The notes beneath the pieces are model-generated. The model worked only from the letters and a program-made list of their open reading frames with translations, made no database searches and had not been told where the DNA came from. Source: Clostridioides phage phiCD508. Taken from it: DNA of 49,272 nt. Below are positions 2,867 through 49,272 of the stretch, piece after piece. Position 1 is the stretch's first letter. Each line of letters begins with the position of its first letter. The DNA is taken from sequence record OR295560.1, one strand, 5' to 3'. The position numbers and the translations under genes are program-made.

Positions 2867-3567
2867 AAAATCACATCCTTATATAATATTTTATTTAAAT
2901 AATTATTTATTATAATATTCATTATATCAAAAACTATTTTTTTTGGTACATTTAATATTAATTATTTTCATTAACCTTTTGTATTATACAATATAATTAT
3001 ACCATATAAAAACTGTTTTTTGTCGAATGTATGTTTGAAAAAATAAAAATTAGTAAATTATCTTAAAAATAATTAGATATACTTTGGAAGCAATAAGAAT
3101 ATTAACAATAAGATAAATCGTTGAAATACCAACATGTGTTAAATAATAACAATAAACAAATAATAAAATTTTAGATTTCAGAATATGAAAGAACCAAAAA
3201 ACGATTAACTAGTAATCTTAATTAAATTCATTTAGTTGATGTTAAAGTATGAAAACTATAGTAGAAGTTGTAATAATAAAACGAACGAAAATTATCATAC
3301 TAAAACATAATACATGCTATAATTGTATTAGATAAATGCTTGAATATATACCAAAAGTACTCTTTTTATAAGAGTGCTTATTTTTTTGAAATTCATCAAC
3401 ATATAAACTATCAAGAACATTACTCAACACACCTTAAAATTGATTTAAATTCTTTTTCATACACAAAGTTATATGATATAATAAAAAAGTAAATATGTAA
3501 CCCCAACACATCTTTACTAAGTCAAACATTATTATATAGAGCATTCTTCATTATGGAGAGTGCTTTT

Positions 3568-16452: not shown

Positions 16453-17526
16453 TTGCTTACATTTTTAGATTTATTCGCAGGGATAGGTGGCTTTAGGCTA
16501 GGGATGGAAAAAGCAGGACATAAATGTTTGGGACATTGCGAATATGATAAATTCGCAAATTTAAGTTATAATGCCATGCACAAACCGAAGGAGGATGAAT
16601 GGTTTGAAAGAGATATTAGAGAAATTAGAACAGAAAATATCCCAAGAGCAGATGTCTGGTGTTTTGGATTCCCATGTCAAGACATTTCTGTTGCAGGGAA
16701 ACAATTTGGATTCAGAGGAGAACGTTCAAGTTTATTTTTTACAGTTACAAAACTTATTAGAGAACTCAAAGAAGAAGATAGACCCAAGTATTTACTTATT
16801 GAAAACGTTAAAAATCTACTTAGTGTTAATGGAGGATTTGATTTCCTCAAAGTTCTCGTTGAACTGGATGAAATCGGCTATGATGCAGAGTGGCAAGTTC
16901 TTAATTCTAAAAACTTCGGAGTACCCCAAAATAGAGAACGAATATTCATTGTTGGACATTTTAGAGGACGAAGTACACGAAAAGTATTTCCTATCGAAAG
17001 AAAAAGTGGAAAAAATCTTGAGCAACTAAATAATCCAACTCATAGTACAAATAGAATTTATGATGCAGTTGGAATTGCTAGATGTATTAGAAGTCAGGCA
17101 GGAGGTGGAGGTGCTAAAACAGGTCTATACTTTATAGACTTAAATAAAAACTCTAAAGTAACAATAAATGCTAGATGCCTTAAAGCAAAATATAATGCAG
17201 GTGTGACAAATAGAAATTGTGATAATAGTGGAGTTTTAGTTAATGCAGTTTTAACGCCCGATAGGGTAAATAAAAGACAAAATGGTCGTAGAATTAAAGA
17301 AAGCGGAGAAACAATGTTCACATTGACAGCTCAAGATAAACATGGAATTTTGAAAAATGGAGATATAAGAAGGTTAACACCAAAGGAATGCTTTAGGTTG
17401 CAAGGATTTCCGGATAAATATTACGAAAGAGCAGCAAGTGTATGCTCAGATAGTCAACTGTATAAGCAAGCAGGAAATGCTGTTACTGCAAATGTTGTAT
17501 ATGAAATAGCAAAAAGAATGGGCTAA
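16453..17526 (+). CDS. DNA (cytosine-5)-methyltransferase (TTG start)
   Basis: Motif I LDLFAGIGGFRLG, motif IV GFPCQDISVAGK, motif VI ENVKNL, and C-terminal QGFPDKY..QAGNAV. Confidence 0.9.
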   Translation: MLTFLDLFAGIGGFRLGMEKAGHKCLGHCEYDKFANLSYNAMHKPKEDEWFERDIREIRTENIPRADVWCFGFPCQDISVAGKQFGFRGERSSLFFTVTKLIRELKEEDRPKYLLIENVKNLLSVNGGFDFLKVLVELDEIGYDAEWQVLNSKNFGVPQNRERIFIVGHFRGRSTRKVFPIERKSGKNLEQLNNPTHSTNRIYDAVGIARCIRSQAGGGGAKTGLYFIDLNKNSKVTINARCLKAKYNAGVTNRNCDNSGVLVNAVLTPDRVNKRQNGRRIKESGETMFTLTAQDKHGILKNGDIRRLTPKECFRLQGFPDKYYERAASVCSDSQLYKQAGNAVTANVVYEIAKRMG

Positions 17527-33015: not shown

Positions 33016-34437
33016 ATGGCAACTGGTACATGGAATGAAAAAGAAAGAAAAGAGATACCTGGTTTTTATAACAGGTTCAAGACTCAAGCAGAAAAATCTA
33101 CAAACACAGGATTAAAGGGTAGATTAGCAATGCCTATTAGGGCTAATTGGGGAGACGTTGGCAAGGTTGTAACAATAAAAAATGATTTAAGACAGCTTAA
33201 AAATCTATTTGGGGATGATATGAATTATTCAGCTTTCAAGCTAGGCAAATTGGCTCTGTTAGGGAATGTAAAAGAGTTATTACTATATAGACTTGTAGAT
33301 GGAAATCAAAAGAAGGGTACATTAACACTAAAAGATACTACAGAAAATAGTGCAAAAGATGTAATTAAGTTAGAAACTAAGTATCCAACAGCTAGAAACT
33401 TTAATGTAACAATAAAATCCAATTTAGTAGATTCAGATAAAAAGGACTTTATATTCTTTGAAAATACTAAACAGTTATTTAGTTCAAGTATTAAAGGCAC
33501 TATAGATGAAATAGTACTAGAAATAAACTCAAATTTAGATAATGAGTATGTAATTGCAACTAAAGTAGCTGATAGCGATACAATTCTAGCAAATGTAGTA
33601 AATCAAGCTTTAGAGGGTGGGAATGATGGTTGCACATCTATTACTAATGAGTCTTATCTAAAAGCACTAGAAGAATTTGAAAGATATAGTTTTGACTCTT
33701 TTGTACTTGATGGTGTGGCTGATGAAGCATTGCAGGAAACTACAAAAGCTTGGGTAGCTAAAAATAAAGAATTAGGAAAAGATATACTACTTTTTCTAGG
33801 TGGAAAAACAGAGGATAATATAAAACAGATAAATGATAAATCAAAAAGTTTCAATGATGAAAATATAGTTAACGTTGGAAGCTCAGCTTATTATGAAAAT
33901 ATAAAATATACACCTAGTGAAGTAGCTGTTTACATTGCTGCTCTTTCTGTAAGTAAAGGTATAACGGGTAGTATATGTAATGCAAAAACTATATTTGAAG
34001 AAGTAGAACCACGATTAAGTCAATCAGAAGTTAAAGAGTGTTTGAAAAGTGGTACATTGGTCTTAGATTTTGATGATGGAGATGTGATTATAGTTGATGA
34101 TGTGAACACATTTAAAAAATATGTAGATGATAAAAACGAAGCAATGGGATATATCTCTAATATCATGTTTATTAATACTATAAATAAAGATACTTCATTA
34201 AAAAGAAAAGAGTTTGTAGGTAAGATATTTAATGATGCAACAGGTCAAACAACTGTTATATGTGCATTGAAGAAATATTTTGAAGAATTGATGAGTCAAG
34301 GTATTATATCAGAATTTAATGTTGATATAGATACAGAGCTTCAAGCAACTGCCAAAGCAGATGAATTTTACTGGAAGTGGGATGCTGTTAAGGTTGATGT
34401 CATGAAAAAAATATATGGTACTGGATACTTAGGATAA
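33016..34437 (+). CDS. Contractile tail sheath protein (XkdK-like)
   Basis: 473 aa; followed by tube, chaperone and tape-measure genes as in PBSX-like tails. Confidence 0.7.
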   Translation: MATGTWNEKERKEIPGFYNRFKTQAEKSTNTGLKGRLAMPIRANWGDVGKVVTIKNDLRQLKNLFGDDMNYSAFKLGKLALLGNVKELLLYRLVDGNQKKGTLTLKDTTENSAKDVIKLETKYPTARNFNVTIKSNLVDSDKKDFIFFENTKQLFSSSIKGTIDEIVLEINSNLDNEYVIATKVADSDTILANVVNQALEGGNDGCTSITNESYLKALEEFERYSFDSFVLDGVADEALQETTKAWVAKNKELGKDILLFLGGKTEDNIKQINDKSKSFNDENIVNVGSSAYYENIKYTPSEVAVYIAALSVSKGITGSICNAKTIFEEVEPRLSQSEVKECLKSGTLVLDFDDGDVIIVDDVNTFKKYVDDKNEAMGYISNIMFINTINKDTSLKRKEFVGKIFNDATGQTTVICALKKYFEELMSQGIISEFNVDIDTELQATAKADEFYWKWDAVKVDVMKKIYGTGYLG

Positions 34438-34452
34438 AGGAGGTTATAGATT

Positions 34453-34866
34453 ATGTATAATGATGATTATATAGAAGAAGCCAGTTTTCTGAATGGTTCT
34501 GATGTAGTTATACTTATTGATGGTGTAGAAGAGCTATACATGGAAGAAATAAAAGCTGATTTTGAGCAAGATGAGCAAAGTATTAAACTGTTAGGGTGTC
34601 AAAATGAAATATCAAGGGTTGGTACTACTAAAGGTTCATTCTCCTTGAATGGATATAAGACAGATTCAAAATTTGCAAAATTAGGATTTAGGTCTTTTGA
34701 AATAATATATAATTTATCTAATTCTGAAACATTAGGATATGAAAGTATTAGATTAAAGAATTGTAGATTAAAAAAATTGCCTCTTATAAATTCTAAAGCT
34801 GGTGAAATTGTAAAAATAGAAGTAGAGGGAAGTTTTAGAGGATATGATTTGTTAAATGAACTTTAA
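34453..34866 (+). CDS. Tail tube protein (XkdM-like)
   Basis: 137 aa, position. Confidence 0.6.
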   Translation: MYNDDYIEEASFLNGSDVVILIDGVEELYMEEIKADFEQDEQSIKLLGCQNEISRVGTTKGSFSLNGYKTDSKFAKLGFRSFEIIYNLSNSETLGYESIRLKNCRLKKLPLINSKAGEIVKIEVEGSFRGYDLLNEL

Positions 34867-34949
34867 AACAAAATAATGTTGTACTTTAAAGCTATGAACA
34901 ATTAATTTTGTTTGTAGCTTTTTAAAATTAAAAATATTGGAGGAATAGT

Positions 34950-35441
34950 ATGTCAGAGATATATAAAAGAGAGTTAGAAAATGAAGTAGTAGAAGATAAT
35001 GATTTAGATGAAGAAATAGAAGAAACAAATGAAGATAGATTGAAGATGAAAGAGGATGAAATAATAGCAAAGCTATTGGAGGATTCACCAGTTCCTCAGA
35101 GAACTGTGTTTTTAGATAGATTAGGAATACCAATTACTTTGAAAGCATTAACAGAAAAAGAGATTAGTAAAATAAGAAAAGAATGCACTAAAATTGTAAA
35201 GGTCCAAGGGCGAAGAGAAGAAAAATTAAATGATGATGAGTTTACTCTAGCATTAATAGAAAAAGGAACTGTAAAACCTAATTTTTCTAATCAAAAATTA
35301 CTTAATGCTATGAAAGTAACAAATGCTAGAGAATTTATAAAGAGAAAATTCTTAGCTGGAGAATTAAGTAAAATAAGTGACCAAATATTAGAATTATCCG
35401 GTTTTTATGATGAAATAAGTGATGATGATATAAAAAACTAA
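34950..35441 (+). CDS. Tail assembly chaperone (XkdN-like), G-type product
   Basis: 163 aa, acidic; it ends in the slippery sequence A_AAA_AAC. Confidence 0.55.
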   Translation: MSEIYKRELENEVVEDNDLDEEIEETNEDRLKMKEDEIIAKLLEDSPVPQRTVFLDRLGIPITLKALTEKEISKIRKECTKIVKVQGRREEKLNDDEFTLALIEKGTVKPNFSNQKLLNAMKVTNAREFIKRKFLAGELSKISDQILELSGFYDEISDDDIKN

Positions 35442-35599
35442 TAAAAATGGGGGGACGACTGACTGTTTTAAATAACATCTTTGTCAAGCATCATGTTCCC
35501 CCAGATGTTTATGTTAAGAAAAATTTAATGTCTCAACGCTTAATGAAAGTATTTACTCAAAATGAAATAGAGCAAGAGAATAAAGCTATGAAAAAATAA
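35432..35599 (+). other. Putative -1 programmed frameshift site and GT-type extension of the chaperone
   Basis: Heptamer aaaaaac (35432-35438) lies at the last codons before TAA. The -1 frame opens at 35429 and runs without stops to TAA 35597-35599, about 16 nt before the tape-measure start. A GGGGGGAC/GTTCCCCC stem begins 9 nt downstream. Confidence 0.55.
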
Positions 35600-35617
35600 A
35601 TATCTACAGAAAGGTAG

Positions 35618-38600
35618 GTGAGGGAAATAGCTAAAAAGGAAATGTATCATATTGATGTTGTCATAAGTGCAAAAGGCGACGGAGAAACAAAAAGCAAACT
35701 AAGTGCTATGGAAAAATACATGAAGCAGACAGAAAAAAGGATGCAAACACTTAATAGGATAAAGGTTAATCCTGCTATAAAAGCTACTGATAAAGCTTCA
35801 AGTGTTGTAAATAGAGTTAATAACAATATGAATAAAGCAAAAAAAACTGTTACAGCTAGAATAAAAGCTACAGATAACGCGAGTCCAGTAGCCAATAGAG
35901 CTAGCAATAATGTTAATAAAGCTAAAAAGACAGTAACAGCAAGGTTGAAAGCTACAGATAATGCGAGTTCTACTGTTAACAAAGTTAATAATAAGATAAA
36001 AGAAGTTGCTAAGCCTGTACCTCCTGTAATCATACGAGGACAAGATGAATCTAGTTCTATAATAGATAAAGTAAAAGCTAAGATTCAGAATCTAAAAGCT
36101 GATACTATCATAAAAATAAAATCACAAGCTGATGAAGCTATAAATACTATTTCTCGAACTAAAAATAAATTACAAGAATTTGTGAGTAAGAGATATGAAG
36201 CAGCAGTTAAGATTAGAGATGAAGCTAGTTCAGCACTTAGAGGGCTTACAGGAAAAATAGATTCTTTTGTAAGTGGAGCTATTAGTAAATTCGCTAGACT
36301 GGCTACTACCGCAGGAGCTTTAATAGGTGGAATTGGTGTAGGTTCTGCTGTAAAAGGATTTGCTACTTTTGAACAAAGTATGAAGAATACACAAGCCGTA
36401 AGTGGAGCAACAGGAAAAGAAATGGAAGCTTTAACTGCAAAAGCTAGACAGCTTGGGAGAGAAACTAGTTTTACAGCTAAAGATGCAGGAGACGCAATGT
36501 ATTACATGGGTATGGCAGGATGGAAGTCCGAGCAAATGATAAAAGCAATTCCTGACGTTCTTAACTTGGCAGCAGCAGGAGGAACAGACTTAGCGTTAAC
36601 GAGTGACATTGTGACTGATGGACTAACTGCATTAGGAATGACTGCAAATGACACAACTGAATTTGTTGATGTGATGGCAGCAACAATAACTAATTCAAAT
36701 ACAAGTGTTGAGTTAATGGGTGAAACATTTAAATACGTAGGCTCTATGGGCGGAGCATTAGGAGTATCTATGAAAGATTTATCTCTTGCGACAGGTCTAA
36801 TGGCTAGTGCAAGTGTCAAGGGAAGTATGGCAGGTACTTCGTTAAGAGGAGGTCTAGTTAGATTAATAAAGCCACCAGAAGAAGCCGCATCTGCAATTAA
36901 AAAATATGGAATAGAATTAAAGAAAAATAAAAATGGAAGTTTAGACTTGGCAGGAACAATAGGAAGTCTTAGAGAGAAATTAGGAGGATTAAAAGATGTT
37001 GAAAAAGGTGTTGCAATATCCTCTATATTTGGTCGTACTGCAATGGCAGGTTGGGCGGCTGTAGTAAATGCTAGTGAAAGTGACTTTAATAAGTTAACTA
37101 CAGCTATTGCAGAAAGTGAAGGAGAAGCTAAGAGAATTGCTGATATGAAGTTAGATACCTTATCAGGACAATTTGAAATTTTAAAAAGTGCTATTGATGA
37201 TGTAAGGATAAGTGTAGGTCAAAGACTAGGACCTATGACAAGAGGATTTGTAGAAGATTTAATTAAGAAAATGCCACAAATCGGTGATGCTATAGTTGGA
37301 GTAGTAGAAAAGTTTGTTAATAATTTCGATAAAATAAAAGCAGGATTTCAAGTATTATTGCCTGCAATTGGTTCCGTTATAGCCTCTGTTATGGTACTTA
37401 AAGCCACATTTGCTTTTGGAGGAGCCATTAAAAGTTTAAGTTTACTTGCAAGTACTTTTGGTACGGCTAAATTAGTTGCCTTCGGATTAACAGTTGGAAT
37501 AGGGGCTATTGTTATAGCTTTTGCAGGAATGACTGTTGCTATTTCTAATAATAAAACTGCTATGATGGACTTACAAACACGTTTTGGTTCGTTTGGTGAG
37601 TATGTTACTACAATAATGGAGACTGTTGGTGGAGTCATAAAGCTTACGTTAGGTAACTTGCTTATAATGTTAGGTGGAATTGGAAAAGGAATAGGAATAC
37701 TTTTATCTGATAAGAGCTGGGATGAAAAAGCTTCATCACTTAAAAATCTATTTGGCAAAACAACAGCAGAAATTAAAACAAATACAAAAGAAGCTTTATC
37801 AGATATAAATGGAGAAACTTCTAATGCAACAGCTCTATTAAAAAAGTCTACTTCAAAAGAGTTACAAGGTGTTACTAAAGCTTTCTCAACAGCATTTGAC
37901 CAATCTAAAAATGTAACAGAGAAGAAATCTAGCGATATAGCTAGAGCATTAACAAATGGATTAAAGGGTTTAGATGACCAATCTCTTACTATGATGAGAG
38001 GTTTGAATGACAATATGGCGATAATTTTATCTGGTGTGACAGCAGATATGAAACCTAGTGACAAAGTTAATAAAATCACCAAAAATCTTGATGATGCTTT
38101 CAAAGCAGGTAAATTAAGTGCACAAGAATACAGAAGTAGCATACAAGAGACTTTAAATTTTATAAGCAAGTATAGTGCAGATTCTTCAAATAATTTGAAA
38201 CAAGGTATGAGTGATGCTTTCAATGCCTTCAAGGAAGGGACAAATATAGGCGGATTAAAAGACGGAGTAACAGGAATGTTGAACTCTTTAAAAGCAACTG
38301 GTCCACAAGCTTTAGAAACCTTAAAAGGTTTAGGAGGAAAAGCAAGTGAGATTTTCAAAGGAGTGGATTTTAATTCTTCTATAGATGCACAGAAAACTAA
38401 AGTATTACAGAATTTAAATAGTTTAGGATTAGAAGGAACACAGGCTATAGATACTTTAAGAACTATTTTCTCACAAGCATCATCTGCTTTGGATACTACA
38501 AATTTAAAGCAAGGTTTAAGCAATACATTTAACTCTTTTAAAGAAGGATTTAATAGTGGAGGAATAAAAAACGCTATAAATAGTATGCTTGGAACTATTA

Positions 38601-39892
38601 ACCAAGCAGGTCCACAAATGCAACAAGCATTAGGCAAAATGGATGGAAAGATGGGGCAAGTATTTGCTAATGTAGACTTTAGTACTCCAATAGAAACACA
38701 AGCTAGTAAAGTTCTTGAAAATTTGAATAATCTAGGAATAGAAGGACCAAAAGCTTTAGAAACTGTAAGAAGTATATTTGCTCAAGCTTCAAGTCAAATA
38801 CAAGGTTCAGCTTCTCAAACGGCACAACAAGCGAATCAAGAAGTGGCTAATGCTCTAACTCAAGGTAATCCAGCTGTACAACAAGCAGGACAACAATTAG
38901 GTACAGATTTGACTAATGGTGTAGTAAATGGAGTACAGGCAGGAGTGCCAGTTGTACAGCAAAAAAGTAATGAACTTGCTACAGCAACACAAAACGGAGT
39001 AACAAATGCTGTAAATAGTGCAACTCCTCAAATAGATAATTCAAATCTTACAAGTGGTATAGATACAGCATTCAATCAAGCTACTGCAACAGTTCAGCAA
39101 GGGGCGAGTAGTATGTATAATGGTGCTAAACAAAGTTTTACACAACTAGCACAAATAGGTAGAGAAGCAGGTTCAAGTCTTTATAATGGTGCTACAACTT
39201 CTTTTAATATGTTAGCAACAAATGTTAGAGTTGCATGTAGTAGCATGTACAATGGAGCTAGAACATCTTTTACGAGTTTAAGCAGTTCAGCTATAAGTGC
39301 CATTTCTGCTATGTGTAGTTCTGTAGTAAGCCAAGTTAGTGCCATGTCGAGTCAAATTATCAGCTATTGGAATAGTGTAAGAGCAACAGTTTCAGCACCA
39401 ATTACAGCATCTTTTAATGTTAAGACTACTCAAACAACAGTTAAAAGAACCGTAAATGAAAGTAGTGGTGGAATACTGGGTAATATACTAGACCGTTTTG
39501 CTGATGGTGGAGTAGCAACAAGAACTTCTATCTGCGGAGAGAATGGAGCTGAAATGGTTATCCCTCTTACAAACACTAGAAGAAGTAGAGCAATAGAATT
39601 ATATGAACAAACAGGTAAAATGTTAGGATTAGGTTCAACTCCTTCTCAAAAAGTAGGTAATTCTAATATTGTAAATAATGTTAGACAATTTCCTCTTGCA
39701 AATGTTTTAGATACAGATAATAAAGAATATAAAGAAGCTACACCAAACAGTGTTAATTCTTCTAATAATACTATAAATTTAGGCGGAATATCTATAAATG
39801 TTCAAAATAGTGATAACAAAGAAGAAATGATACAAGAACTATTATCTCAAGTAGAAAGTGGAATAAGAGAAGCATTACAAGATATTGGATAA
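35618..39892 (+). CDS. Tail tape measure protein
   Basis: 1424 aa. N-terminal tandem about 25-aa repeats (ATDNAS..VNRxNNxxNKAKKTVTARxK), a hydrophobic central region, Gly/Ala-rich. Confidence 0.9.
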   Translation: MREIAKKEMYHIDVVISAKGDGETKSKLSAMEKYMKQTEKRMQTLNRIKVNPAIKATDKASSVVNRVNNNMNKAKKTVTARIKATDNASPVANRASNNVNKAKKTVTARLKATDNASSTVNKVNNKIKEVAKPVPPVIIRGQDESSSIIDKVKAKIQNLKADTIIKIKSQADEAINTISRTKNKLQEFVSKRYEAAVKIRDEASSALRGLTGKIDSFVSGAISKFARLATTAGALIGGIGVGSAVKGFATFEQSMKNTQAVSGATGKEMEALTAKARQLGRETSFTAKDAGDAMYYMGMAGWKSEQMIKAIPDVLNLAAAGGTDLALTSDIVTDGLTALGMTANDTTEFVDVMAATITNSNTSVELMGETFKYVGSMGGALGVSMKDLSLATGLMASASVKGSMAGTSLRGGLVRLIKPPEEAASAIKKYGIELKKNKNGSLDLAGTIGSLREKLGGLKDVEKGVAISSIFGRTAMAGWAAVVNASESDFNKLTTAIAESEGEAKRIADMKLDTLSGQFEILKSAIDDVRISVGQRLGPMTRGFVEDLIKKMPQIGDAIVGVVEKFVNNFDKIKAGFQVLLPAIGSVIASVMVLKATFAFGGAIKSLSLLASTFGTAKLVAFGLTVGIGAIVIAFAGMTVAISNNKTAMMDLQTRFGSFGEYVTTIMETVGGVIKLTLGNLLIMLGGIGKGIGILLSDKSWDEKASSLKNLFGKTTAEIKTNTKEALSDINGETSNATALLKKSTSKELQGVTKAFSTAFDQSKNVTEKKSSDIARALTNGLKGLDDQSLTMMRGLNDNMAIILSGVTADMKPSDKVNKITKNLDDAFKAGKLSAQEYRSSIQETLNFISKYSADSSNNLKQGMSDAFNAFKEGTNIGGLKDGVTGMLNSLKATGPQALETLKGLGGKASEIFKGVDFNSSIDAQKTKVLQNLNSLGLEGTQAIDTLRTIFSQASSALDTTNLKQGLSNTFNSFKEGFNSGGIKNAINSMLGTINQAGPQMQQALGKMDGKMGQVFANVDFSTPIETQASKVLENLNNLGIEGPKALETVRSIFAQASSQIQGSASQTAQQANQEVANALTQGNPAVQQAGQQLGTDLTNGVVNGVQAGVPVVQQKSNELATATQNGVTNAVNSATPQIDNSNLTSGIDTAFNQATATVQQGASSMYNGAKQSFTQLAQIGREAGSSLYNGATTSFNMLATNVRVACSSMYNGARTSFTSLSSSAISAISAMCSSVVSQVSAMSSQIISYWNSVRATVSAPITASFNVKTTQTTVKRTVNESSGGILGNILDRFADGGVATRTSICGENGAEMVIPLTNTRRSRAIELYEQTGKMLGLGSTPSQKVGNSNIVNNVRQFPLANVLDTDNKEYKEATPNSVNSSNNTINLGGISINVQNSDNKEEMIQELLSQVESGIREALQDIG

Positions 39893-46758: not shown

Positions 46759-46971
46759 ATGAAAAAACAAGTATATTATAATTCTTTAGATGAAAAAGAA
46801 AAAATAATTGATGAAAACTCTAATTTATATATTATAGAAATATATGAAACTTTAAATGAAAATTATTTAGTATTATCAAGTAGTCCAGCAGAAGACAAAG
46901 AACTTAGTTATGAAGAATTAGAAAATGAATTATTAATTATAACTAATGAATTACAGGGAGGATTGTTGTAA
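46759..46971 (+). CDS. Small acidic hypothetical protein
   Basis: 70 aa. Confidence 0.3.
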   Translation: MKKQVYYNSLDEKEKIIDENSNLYIIEIYETLNENYLVLSSSPAEDKELSYEELENELLIITNELQGGLL

Positions 46972-47153
46972 TGAATATAAACAATGTTGTAGTAAGAATA
47001 TTAGCAGAGAGAATATTAAATAAAGGGTTAAATCCTTTAAAAAATCGAGAATTTGAGTTAGATGATGTAACTAACACAGACTATAGGACAGCAGTAGAGG
47101 ATTATATAATTAAACAGAGTGGAGTAGTAGAAGGAGCAGAACCAACAAAGTAG
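46971..47153 (+). CDS. XkdX-like small protein
   Basis: 60 aa, the position typical of xkdX/xhlA-region genes before the lysis genes. Confidence 0.3.
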   Translation: MNINNVVVRILAERILNKGLNPLKNREFELDDVTNTDYRTAVEDYIIKQSGVVEGAEPTK

Positions 47154-47252
47154 GTTCTTTTTTTATATAAATTAAAAATAATTTCCTTTTTTAGTTATAT
47201 ATTTTTTATTCTTATCTATAATAAAAAAATTCTATTAAAAGGAGATTGAAAA

Positions 47253-47471
47253 ATGAAGAAAATAATTGTAATTTGCATTCTAGTTCTAATGTTAATTATA
47301 CCTACTATGGGGGAGATATTTATAATGGTAGAAAATATAAAGCTAGAGGGGCTAGAACAAAACCCAACAAGTTGTTACATTTCTAATCCAGGGATTATGG
47401 GAGAAGCAAAATGTGATGCAGCATACTTTATTATAGCTGCAGATTTCGTTAACAATTTAAAGGTAAAATAA
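47253..47471 (+). CDS. Small secreted/membrane protein (signal peptide, 2 Cys)
   Basis: MKKIIVICILVLMLIIPTMG...; own AT-rich promoter region and a downstream terminator. Confidence 0.35.
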   Translation: MKKIIVICILVLMLIIPTMGEIFIMVENIKLEGLEQNPTSCYISNPGIMGEAKCDAAYFIIAADFVNNLKVK

Positions 47472-47489
47472 TAAATTAATACATTTAAA

Positions 47490-47516
47490 GGACTTAGATA
47501 ATTCTAGGTCCTTTTT
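47490..47516 (+). terminator. Rho-independent terminator (near-identical copy of 22506-22535)
   Basis: ggacttag-ataatt-ctaggtcc followed by ttttt. Confidence 0.6.
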
Positions 47517-47538
47517 AATACAAAAATTAGGAGGAAAT

Positions 47539-47970
47539 ATGAATTTAACAATAGTTTTTTTAGCAACAAATATATTTATAAAATTAGTAATATTAGCAAT
47601 AGCATTTGATACACTGTTAGGTTGCTTAAGAGCAATAAAAACACATCAGTTTAACTCAAGTTTTGGAATAAATGGTGGAATAAGAAAAGTCGCAATGATA
47701 GCATGTATATTTTTTCTAGCAGTAGTTGACATTCTTACAAAGTTTAACTTTTTATTTATGTTACCACAAGATTGGGTTGATTTCTTACGACTAAATCATC
47801 TTGGAATATCTGAATTTTTCTCTATTTTATTTATTCTATATGAAAGTGTAAGTATATTAAAAAACATGTATTTGTGTGGGTTACCAGTGCCTAAAAAATT
47901 AAAAGATAGAATAGGTAACTTATTAGATACTATGACAGATGAATTAAATGTTAAAGGAGGTAGTAAATAA
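47539..47970 (+). CDS. Holin (multi-TM, TcdE/phage holin-like)
   Basis: 143 aa with 3-4 TM segments, directly upstream of and overlapping the endolysin start. Confidence 0.6.
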   Translation: MNLTIVFLATNIFIKLVILAIAFDTLLGCLRAIKTHQFNSSFGINGGIRKVAMIACIFFLAVVDILTKFNFLFMLPQDWVDFLRLNHLGISEFFSILFILYESVSILKNMYLCGLPVPKKLKDRIGNLLDTMTDELNVKGGSK

Positions 47971-48809
47971 TGAAAATATGTATAACAGTAGGACACAGTA
48001 TTTTAAAAAGCGGAGCATGTACTTCTGCTGATGGAGTAGTTAACGAGTATCAATACAATAAATCTCTTGCCCCAGTGTTAGCAGATAGATTTAAAAAAGA
48101 AGGTCATAAGGCAGATGTAATAATATGCCCAGAAAAGCAGTTCAAAACTAAGGACGAGGAAAAGACTTATAAAATACCTAGAGTTAATAGTGGAGGATAT
48201 GACTTACTTATAGAGTTGCATTTAAATTCAAGTGGTGTAGGAGCTTTTGGAACAGAATTATTTTACTATAGTGAAAAAGGGAAGGAATATGCGCAGAGGG
48301 TGGTAGATAAACTGTCTAAACCTTTCATAAGAAAAAAAGGAGATAAAGAAGTAGGTAATAGAGGTGCTAAATTAGATAAAAGTTTATATATTTTAAATAG
48401 TTCTAAACCTACTGCAATACTAATTGAAAGTTTCTTCTGTGATAATAAAGAAGATTATGAGAAAGCTAAGAAACTAGGTCATGAAGGTATTGCTAAGTTA
48501 ATTGTAGAAGGTGTATTAAATAAAAATATAAATAATGAGGGAGTTAAACAGATGTACAAACATACAATTGTTTATGATGGAGAAGTTGATAAGATACTTG
48601 CGAATGTGCTTAGTTGGGGCTATAGTCCAAGCAAAGTTTTAGTTTGTGATATAAAAGATTACGTACCAGGTCAGACGGAAAATTTATATGTTGTAGGAGG
48701 TGGCGCATGTGAAAAGATAAGTTCTATTACTAAAGAAAAATTTATTATGATAAAAGGTAATGATAGATTTGATACACTTTATAAAGCATTGGATTTTATT
48801 AATAGATAG
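47970..48809 (+). CDS. Endolysin, N-acetylmuramoyl-L-alanine amidase (Amidase_3) with a C-terminal binding domain
   Basis: MKICITVGHSILKSGACTSADGVVNEYQYNKSLAPVLA...GGYDLLIELHLNSS; the N-terminus closely resembles the C. difficile phage endolysin CD27L as I recall it. Confidence 0.9.
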   Translation: MKICITVGHSILKSGACTSADGVVNEYQYNKSLAPVLADRFKKEGHKADVIICPEKQFKTKDEEKTYKIPRVNSGGYDLLIELHLNSSGVGAFGTELFYYSEKGKEYAQRVVDKLSKPFIRKKGDKEVGNRGAKLDKSLYILNSSKPTAILIESFFCDNKEDYEKAKKLGHEGIAKLIVEGVLNKNINNEGVKQMYKHTIVYDGEVDKILANVLSWGYSPSKVLVCDIKDYVPGQTENLYVVGGGACEKISSITKEKFIMIKGNDRFDTLYKALDFINR

Positions 48810-48883
48810 ATAAAAGTTATCAACTAGAAGTGGTTGTTTGTTGTGATAACTCTATTATTGTAATATAATGTAAATATATTATT

Positions 48884-49252
48884 GTGATAATGGAGGATTT
48901 ATGTATGGATGCATTGGTTTATGAGAGATTTGTAAGAGCAGCTTTTAGTATTAAACTTAATAACTTGATTAATAGAAGCGAAGATTTAGGTGGATTGGCT
49001 GAAGCTGATATCTTTAGAGCAGCAAATAATTTACATGAATTAAATGAGATAAAAATAGGTACTGGGTATGCTATTGCAATATTTAATAATGAGATATTAG
49101 AGTCTTGTAATGTTTCTGATAATGATAGCAATAGAATGATTGAACTATTTGATAGAAGTTTAATTGCAACTTCTAGGGAGGAAATATTGGATATTATAAG
49201 AGAATATGAAACTTATAGAGGACGATATCTTACTTTTAATTGGAAGAGATAG
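48884..49252 (+). CDS. Hypothetical protein whose 3' end lies in the terminal repeat
   Basis: 122 aa; the last 11 codons and the stop are inside 49218-49272. Confidence 0.4.
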   Translation: MIMEDLCMDALVYERFVRAAFSIKLNNLINRSEDLGGLAEADIFRAANNLHELNEIKIGTGYAIAIFNNEILESCNVSDNDSNRMIELFDRSLIATSREEILDIIREYETYRGRYLTFNWKR

Positions 49253-49272
49253 AATGTTTAAGTTAGGAAGTA
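49218..49272. repeat. Terminal direct repeat, copy 2 (identical to 1-55)
   Basis: Exact 55-nt identity with the window start. It overlaps the last 11 codons and the stop of the 48884..49252 ORF. Confidence 0.9.

Follow-up and report, generated by a model that had tools for sequence, protein, structure and literature searches.

Long-tailed phages classically use a programmed -1 ribosomal frameshift to make two tail assembly chaperones, G and its extended form GT, from overlapping open reading frames (ORFs), as set out by Levin, Hendrix & Casjens (1993) and Xu, Hendrix & Duda (2004) in the parts recounted in PMC5009743. The gpG/gpGT pair of phage lambda was treated further by Xu, Hendrix & Duda (2013, 2014), according to the summary in the same source, and the E/E+E' frameshift in the FETUD tail operon of P2 goes back to Christie et al. 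(2002), as reported in PMC3091744. Here we examine the corresponding locus of Clostridioides phage phiCD508 (OR295560.1) in a stretch of 49,272 nucleotides (nt), hereafter called the window, which carries an XkdN-like tail assembly chaperone gene at 34950-35441. Sequence comparison makes it very probable that this gene, in a phiMMP02-like C. difficile myophage, contains a programmed -1 frameshift signal of the lambda G/GT (P2 E/E+E') type. The frameshift class is already known, and such a signal is nothing unusual in a long-tailed phage, where it is to be expected. It represents no new mechanism, in a locus that is unannotated here and across the protein family.

Lambda and the window share a pair of overlapping ORFs directly ahead of the tape-measure gene, of which the second lacks a translation start. 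In lambda, ribosomes that slip by -1 on an X_XXY_YYZ heptamer close to the end of the first ORF make a fusion with an extended C terminus, as we propose for the window. By analogy, the expected roles would be alike as well: G would bind the tape measure, and T would recruit the tube (major tail) protein. The lambda tail is, however, non-contractile, and the lambda heptamer is G_GGA_AAG. To our knowledge, the lambda frameshift needs no downstream stimulatory structure. At phage tail frameshift sites, downstream structures have been identified only rarely, and P2 and its Burkholderia relatives have no downstream hairpin (PMC3091744). P2 resembles the window in its contractile tail, in the order of sheath, tube, E/E' and tape measure, and in a -1 shift near the end of the chaperone ORF, but it uses the heptamer T_TTT_TTG, encodes another protein family and infects a proteobacterial host.

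Closer in protein sequence are xkdN/xkzB of PBSX and the PBSX-like elements, whose chaperones belong to the same family, PF08890 (Phage_TAC_5). The PBSX-like Bacillus pumilus element PBP180 has A_AAA_AAC at the end of its XkdN-like ORF, followed by a 68-codon -1 frame, part of which is annotated as a separate hypothetical ORF21. These systems differ from the window in that the proteins are about 32% identical and in that PBSX is a defective producer of tail-like particles. Two further systems share the type of signal. Escherichia coli dnaX is a bacterial -1 frameshift with an A-rich heptamer and a stimulatory stem-loop a few nucleotides downstream, as proposed here, but it is a cellular gene with the heptamer A_AAA_AAG, a shifted product that is the shorter one and an efficiency of about 50%, and it has a Shine-Dalgarno-like upstream stimulator. 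The haloarchaeal siphovirus HCTV-2 uses A_AAA_AAC for its tail chaperone G-T (PMC5009743), but in an archaeal host, with a non-contractile tail and unrelated proteins. Judged by sequence comparison, three things set the locus apart within the G/GT class: the use of A_AAA_AAC, the family-wide invariance of this heptamer, and a selected downstream hairpin.

The chaperone ORF of the window encodes 163 residues and ends GAT ATA AAA AAC TAA, with the zero-frame stop at 35439-35441. The heptamer A_AAA_AAC, spelled by ATA AAA AAC, occupies 35432-35438, in the X_XXY_YYZ register of the zero frame and inside the overlap of both frames. The -1 frame has a TGA at 35426-35428, is open from 35429 (3 nt before the heptamer) and runs to the TAA at 35597-35599. 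A preliminary description of this DNA, made from the sequence and its ORF list, had read the ORF end, the heptamer and both limits of the -1 frame in the same way. Its figures for length and spacing were close and needed small corrections. The extension, put at about 54 residues, is 53 residues long (LIKMGGRLTVLNN...AMKK; 35438-35599 including the stop), starts after the slip with CTA 35438-35440, ends with AAA before its stop, and gives a conceptual fusion of 216 residues. The gap from the -1 stop to the tape-measure start (GTG 35618, according to the phiMMP02 record), estimated at about 16 nt, is 18 nt.

The window is AT-rich (29% GC). AAAAAAC occurs 17 times on its + strand, and its ORFs of 100 codons or more contain 182 slippery-type heptamers in frame. 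Since there are so many of these, the heptamer by itself is not beyond chance. The spelling of Ile-Lys-Asn as ATA AAA AAC has a probability of about 0.08 from the codon usage of the window, where AAC accounts for 17% of Asn codons. The abundance of such heptamers is what would favour reading the heptamer and open -1 frame as a coincidence without an expressed product. Against it, the median -1 extension after the slippery-type heptamers is 4 codons, and an open -1 frame of 53 codons has P ~3e-4 at the 14% stop density of the window's -1 frames. The arrangement is moreover conserved over 87 loci down to 25% protein identity, with a protein-coding substitution pattern in the -1 frame. The heptamer, the 53-codon open frame and the conservation together are more than chance. 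Coincidence is left with a negligible probability, and the comparative data effectively refute it.

We infer the slippage, its efficiency (and with it the product ratio) and the roles of both products along the following lines. The majority of ribosomes would read ATA AAA AAC, terminate at TAA 35439-35441 and release the 163-residue chaperone. In a minority, the ribosome would be held by a stem-loop at 35448-35503, whose base is 9-10 nt downstream, with its P site occupied by tRNA-Lys, paired with AAA 35433-35435, and its A site by tRNA-Asn, paired with AAC 35436-35438. On slipping back one base, both tRNAs would re-pair with AAA and AAA, and -1 reading would proceed from CTA 35438 to TAA 35597-35599. 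The minor product would be a GT-like fusion of 216 residues (...DDDIKN-LIKMGGRL...AMKK). If the two products work as lambda gpG and gpGT do, the N-terminal part common to both may coat the tape measure protein, the C-terminal T segment of 53 residues may recruit the tube protein and so start its polymerisation, and neither form of the chaperone would be retained in the virion.

The preliminary description had suggested comparing the site with related phages, and had named a lack of the open -1 frame in them as a finding that would speak against a frameshift. We assembled 87 related loci: 80 from IMG/VR, with 99-40% protein identity, and seven from GenBank phages, with 25-37% (BalMu-1, Lietuvens, the PBSX-like PBP180, phi jlb1, Osiris, phiAQ113 and Abouo). 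Their hosts are Clostridia, Bacillus, Sporosarcina, Lactobacillus and Brevibacillus. The heptamer with the open -1 frame is the rule among them, which decisively contradicts that condition. The arrangement was found in 87/87 loci, with a -1 extension of 48-66 codons, and the heptamer is A_AAA_AAC in 85, A_AAA_AAG in one and carries a one-base deletion in the A run in one. An in-frame A_AAA_AAC lies 0-21 nt before the zero-frame stop in 77 of the 80 IMG/VR loci (L037 included), and the distance is 0-3 nt in most relatives. The seven distant phages have the same A_AAA_AAC, followed by about 55-65 further codons in the -1 frame.

The constraint extends to bases that the proteins leave free. Whichever of Ile, Val, Leu or Ala is encoded just ahead of AAA AAC, the third base of that codon is A in every relative; the Lys codon of the slip site is always AAA, and the Asn codon always AAC, bar the AAG of locus L081. 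Neither protein frame accounts for this synonymous-site constraint, because AAT TAA would retain the Asn, the stop and the Leu of the -1 frame. A protein search with the conceptual fusion matched 44 XkdN-like proteins, in whose alignment the C-terminal Ile-Lys-Asn is almost invariant. Another database protein, P0044 (125 residues, from a 957-nt contig), has the tube domain PF09393 and aligns with 20% of the fusion query, at 95% identity there; a gene that was truncated at the contig end, or wrongly called there, is the probable explanation.

Two relatives show single-base changes in homopolymers. In L051 (2900-2960) the slip site has A5 instead of A6, and in L059 (285-400) one T is lost inside the extension; in each case the rest of the peptide is read in the shifted frame. 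These changes stem either from errors in sequencing or from prophages in decay. No GGAGG-type upstream stimulator motif is present near the heptamer in the window. Such motifs precede the heptamer by a few to about 17 nt in L084 BalMu-1 (1590-1620; gaggaggacaatgaggcAAAAAAC) and L085 Lietuvens (1575-1596; ggtggaggacgcAAAAAAC), where they may act as Shine-Dalgarno-like stimulators by analogy with dnaX. In L085 Lietuvens, L088 Osiris and L090 Abouo, one to three extra small genes stand between the -1 extension and the tape-measure gene, so that chaperone and tape measure are not strictly adjacent throughout the family.

The extension encodes a conserved peptide, which in the relatives takes the form LI.xGG.IT.LYNLF.KH...P..F....M.R.LL.AF..YE.E.E.K. 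Over the first 28 codons, the mean pairwise amino acid identity is 46% in the -1 frame, without stops, against 26% in the other two frames, with stops; the -1 frame is the only one that is free of stops in all the sequences compared. Column entropy in this frame is highest at codon position 3, lower at position 1 and lowest at position 2. Judged by these substitutions, the -1 frame is under protein-coding selection. L060 and L062 (about 2896-3010) have the heptamer with a divergent T peptide (LIRTRYKLTLMNFLWIRHSLRFREFY...), lacking the Gly-Gly and the Pro.

A coding frame of this kind could be translated on its own, and the phiMMP02 records in GenBank and RefSeq treat it so: the last 50 codons of the extension are annotated there as a separate hypothetical protein, gp16, which would use an ATG of its own at 35447, the fourth codon of the extension. 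Small proteins of this kind, of 50 and 53 residues, are found in protein libraries, and PHROGs contains the family (phrog_4503, of unknown function). However, the ATG is preceded by gatataaaaaactaataaaa, with no Shine-Dalgarno in the 20 nt upstream, unlike the neighbouring sheath, tube and chaperone genes, each of which has a site of the GGAGG or GAGG type. Only the phiMMP02 clade has the Met; other clades have R, S, W or L at this position and L009 has N, and the conserved peptide begins with Leu-Ile at the slip site, upstream of the Met. Among 50 distinct sequences, 25 have no ATG, GTG or TTG within the first 12 codons of the T frame, and in the 50 no Shine-Dalgarno-like match before the T segment exceeds 4 nt. 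The annotators of phiCD418 and phiCD27 called no gene in the gap after the chaperone. On this comparative evidence the T segment is without an independent translation start, and a free-standing gp16 gene seems to us very unlikely.

The same ATG is only 5 nt from the zero-frame stop, which would suit a related explanation: ribosomes that stop at TAA 35439-35441 could restart at ATG 35447 and make a free T peptide coupled to the chaperone. Coupling of this stop-start kind is common in phage operons. Termination-reinitiation is, however, possible in the phiMMP02 clade alone, and it leaves unexplained the invariant heptamer, the Leu-Ile before the Met and the selected hairpin in the clades that have no start. 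We regard it as an extremely improbable source of the conserved arrangement. The database record agrees with translation by frameshifting. The T piece had two matches, of about 50 residues each, among 1.84 billion protein representatives, and none of the 44 homologues is a natural or annotated G-T fusion; that T is rarely called as a gene and that no fusion is annotated is as expected if its expression needs the frameshift. Pfam has no match for the T piece, and the NCBIfam models gave no match to G, T or the fusion.

Downstream of the heptamer, the preliminary description had noted a potential stem starting after 9 nt. A stem does exist. The minimum free energy (MFE) fold has a 10-bp outer helix of 35448-35457 with 35494-35503 and inner helices in its loop. 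Within the outer helix the arm GGGGGGAC (35449-35456) pairs with GTTCCCCC (35495-35502). The spacer is 9 nt only if the pair U35448-A35503 is counted, and the G-run arm itself starts 10 nt out. The MFE is -22.8 kcal/mol, with z -2.3 against dinucleotide shuffles. In canonical -1 signals a stable structure starts some 5-9 nt past the heptamer, and the helix of the window agrees with this. No terminator or promoter was detected by scanning at 35448-35503, and the hairpin is therefore not a terminator; Rfam had no match in 35300-35700.

The conserved Gly-Gly and Pro of the T peptide give runs of G and C, and the pairing could therefore be a by-product of the protein. For this reason each distinct sequence was compared with 300 synonymous-codon variants in which the -1 peptide and the codon usage of the locus were left unchanged. 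The window folds at -21.9 kcal/mol, against -11.9 ± 2.6 kcal/mol for its variants, none of which (0/300) is as stable. Its arms are built from rare codons (GGG 9%, CGA 5%, CCC 8%). Over the 83 nt directly after the heptamer the mean z is -3.4, and 86% of the distinct sequences (43/50) reach p ≤ 0.05. The controls inside the chaperone gene, upstream, and inside the tape-measure gene gave mean z of -0.84 and -0.48, with 26% and 14% at p ≤ 0.05. By this synonymous-codon measure, the stem-loop is under RNA-level selection.

The arms themselves differ between clades, with 48 distinct pairs, for example TCATCAGG/CCTGATGA, GTCGGGG/CCCCGAC, CTCCGGGG/CCCCGGAG and GGAAGA/TCTTCC. In a count of pairs for which the structure was derived from the same sequences and the shuffles ignore phylogeny, 62% of cells pair in the best register (i+j = 89/90, as indicated by slid controls) against 56.5 ± 1.0 in shuffles, and there are 50 compensatory double-change cells against 25 ± 4.5; 0/500 shuffles reach the observed value in either case, and the slid controls are all lower.

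The hairpin and the heptamer also bear on a third rival explanation, transcriptional slippage. Were RNA polymerase to add an A within the A6 run at 35432-35437, a subset of mRNAs would have G and T in frame; the run is invariant, a single added A gives nearly the same fusion, and some bacterial and phage genes use such slippage (PMC5009743). In the relatives, however, the run is always exactly six A and never extended, and the base after it may only be C (G in L081), which is what a ribosomal heptamer would lead one to expect. Productive slippage in bacteria normally needs runs of about nine or more A or T. A selected hairpin 5-10 nt downstream would in turn fit a ribosomal stimulator, and a polymerase that has not yet passed the hairpin cannot feel it. 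Slippage by the polymerase is in our judgement very improbable. The independent start, reinitiation and slippage in the A6 run each leave at least one observation unexplained: the seventh base, the residues before the Met, the clades without a start, or the RNA structure.

Several points weigh against a programmed ribosomal frameshift or qualify it. In the literature searched, there is no support from proteomics, ribosome profiling or reporters for this phage or family. In E. coli, A_AAA_AAC is reported to be much less shift-prone than A_AAA_AAG (PMC5009743). In the phiMMP02 clade only, an ATG stands at codon 4 of the extension, 5 nt past the zero-frame stop, and in that clade some reinitiation, yielding a free 50-residue peptide, is possible. 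RNAalifold found no single consensus structure for 35 aligned sequences. The register of the stem shifts by one or two columns between clades, which makes methods that work on fixed columns underperform. Four distinct sequences, L031, L060, L062 and L081, have no excess structure, L060 and L062 folding less stably than their synonymous controls (p ~0.95); the hairpin is therefore not universal. L081 (2851-2965; IMG/VR UViG_3300001592_001581) is the sole relative with A_AAA_AAG, and no excess structure follows its heptamer (p 0.71). This is a single case, but it would agree with slipperiness of the heptamer being traded off against the need for a stimulator. With these points weighed, we maintain that a programmed -1 frameshift is very probably what the locus encodes, and at the sequence level every feature by which the G/GT frameshift class is recognised was found in it.

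The surroundings of the signal are those of a contractile-tail module, with sheath, tube, chaperone, -1 ORF and tape measure following each other on the + strand. The sheath gene (33016-34437) matches Pfam Phage_sheath_1 / 1C / domII and is labelled tail sheath in phiMMP02. The tube gene (34453-34866) is XkdM-like and matches DUF2001 ('Phage tail tube protein', E 1.4e-19). The chaperone ORF, the G equivalent, is preceded by a strong GGAGG Shine-Dalgarno and was called a tail assembly chaperone in the preliminary description, an identification borne out by PF08890 (112 bits, above the gathering threshold of 27; E 2.7e-32; residues 42-162 aligned to positions 4-135 of the 135 in the profile) and by phrog_389. 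The tape-measure gene (35618-39892, 1424 residues) matches PhageMin_Tail (E 2.5e-51) and is annotated as tape measure in phiMMP02. This Pfam order agrees with the G/GT layout between tube and tape-measure genes that had been described earlier. By analogy, the tube protein is the presumed binding partner of the T segment, and the tape measure protein the presumed client of the chaperone.

Between the tube stop (34866) and the chaperone start (34950) there is another hairpin, at 34888-34921, with a perfect 14-bp stem (AAAGCUAUGAACAA / UUGUUUGUAGCUUU), a 6-nt loop and a U-run after it. Its folding free energy (ΔG) is -17.3 kcal/mol (z -3.4), and 0/200 shuffles fold as well. It looks, from its sequence, like a terminator or attenuator that would lower the expression of chaperone and tape measure relative to sheath and tube; it escaped a simple terminator scan.

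Taken as a whole, the window is a mosaic. Over positions 34400-36200 it matches Clostridium phage phiMMP02 (NC_019421) at 100% identity and phiCD418 at 94%; for the tail module the identity to phiMMP02 is 100%, and the first 2.5 kb (1-2500, a Nudix hydrolase / metalloprotease region) are 100% identical to phiCDHM19, CDKM9 and phiC2. The best match of 46773-49272, with holin and endolysin, is CDKM9 at 94%, and no duplicated wrap-around was found between the two ends of the window. The other long -1 extensions in the window (16696/16735) fall in an ORF at 16571-17029, which has 152 codons and no family match and is nested in another frame of a C-5 cytosine DNA methylase gene (16453-17526, Pfam E 7e-74). 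Such a length is large for an open alternative frame at 29% GC, and the nested ORF is probably spurious.

No frameshift is annotated in the records examined, those of the seven distant phages included, and several of them call the fragment a hypothetical protein. A frameshift in XkdN, PBSX or C. difficile phages is likewise undescribed in the literature searched, which did not extend to the tables of Xu et al. (2004). If our reading is right, what is called gp16 (phrog_4503), and what fills the gaps left without annotation in phiCD27, phiCD418 and many other Firmicute myophages, is the C-terminal part of a frameshifted chaperone. This would provide a family-wide rule for annotation, by which an A_AAA_AAC at the end of a PF08890 gene is joined to the -1 frame. 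It would also matter for attempts to rebuild C. difficile phage tails, or PBSX- or diffocin-like particles, in which the heptamer and hairpin must be preserved; optimising the codons would do away with both and would probably prevent tail assembly.

It is tempting to extend the argument to the whole PF08890 family of Firmicute contractile-tail phages and particles, which may share the invariant A_AAA_AAC and, for the most part, a maintained bipartite downstream hairpin as stimulator. We put this forward tentatively, with doubt slightly outweighing confidence. If it holds, the exclusive use of A_AAA_AAC would indicate either host-specific decoding, through modification of tRNA-Asn or tRNA-Lys, or a need for a low G:GT ratio set through RNA structure. 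A conserved stimulatory hairpin is uncommon at phage G/GT sites, and the family would then offer a natural, phylogenetically rich and tractable model of -1 frameshifting in Gram-positive bacteria.

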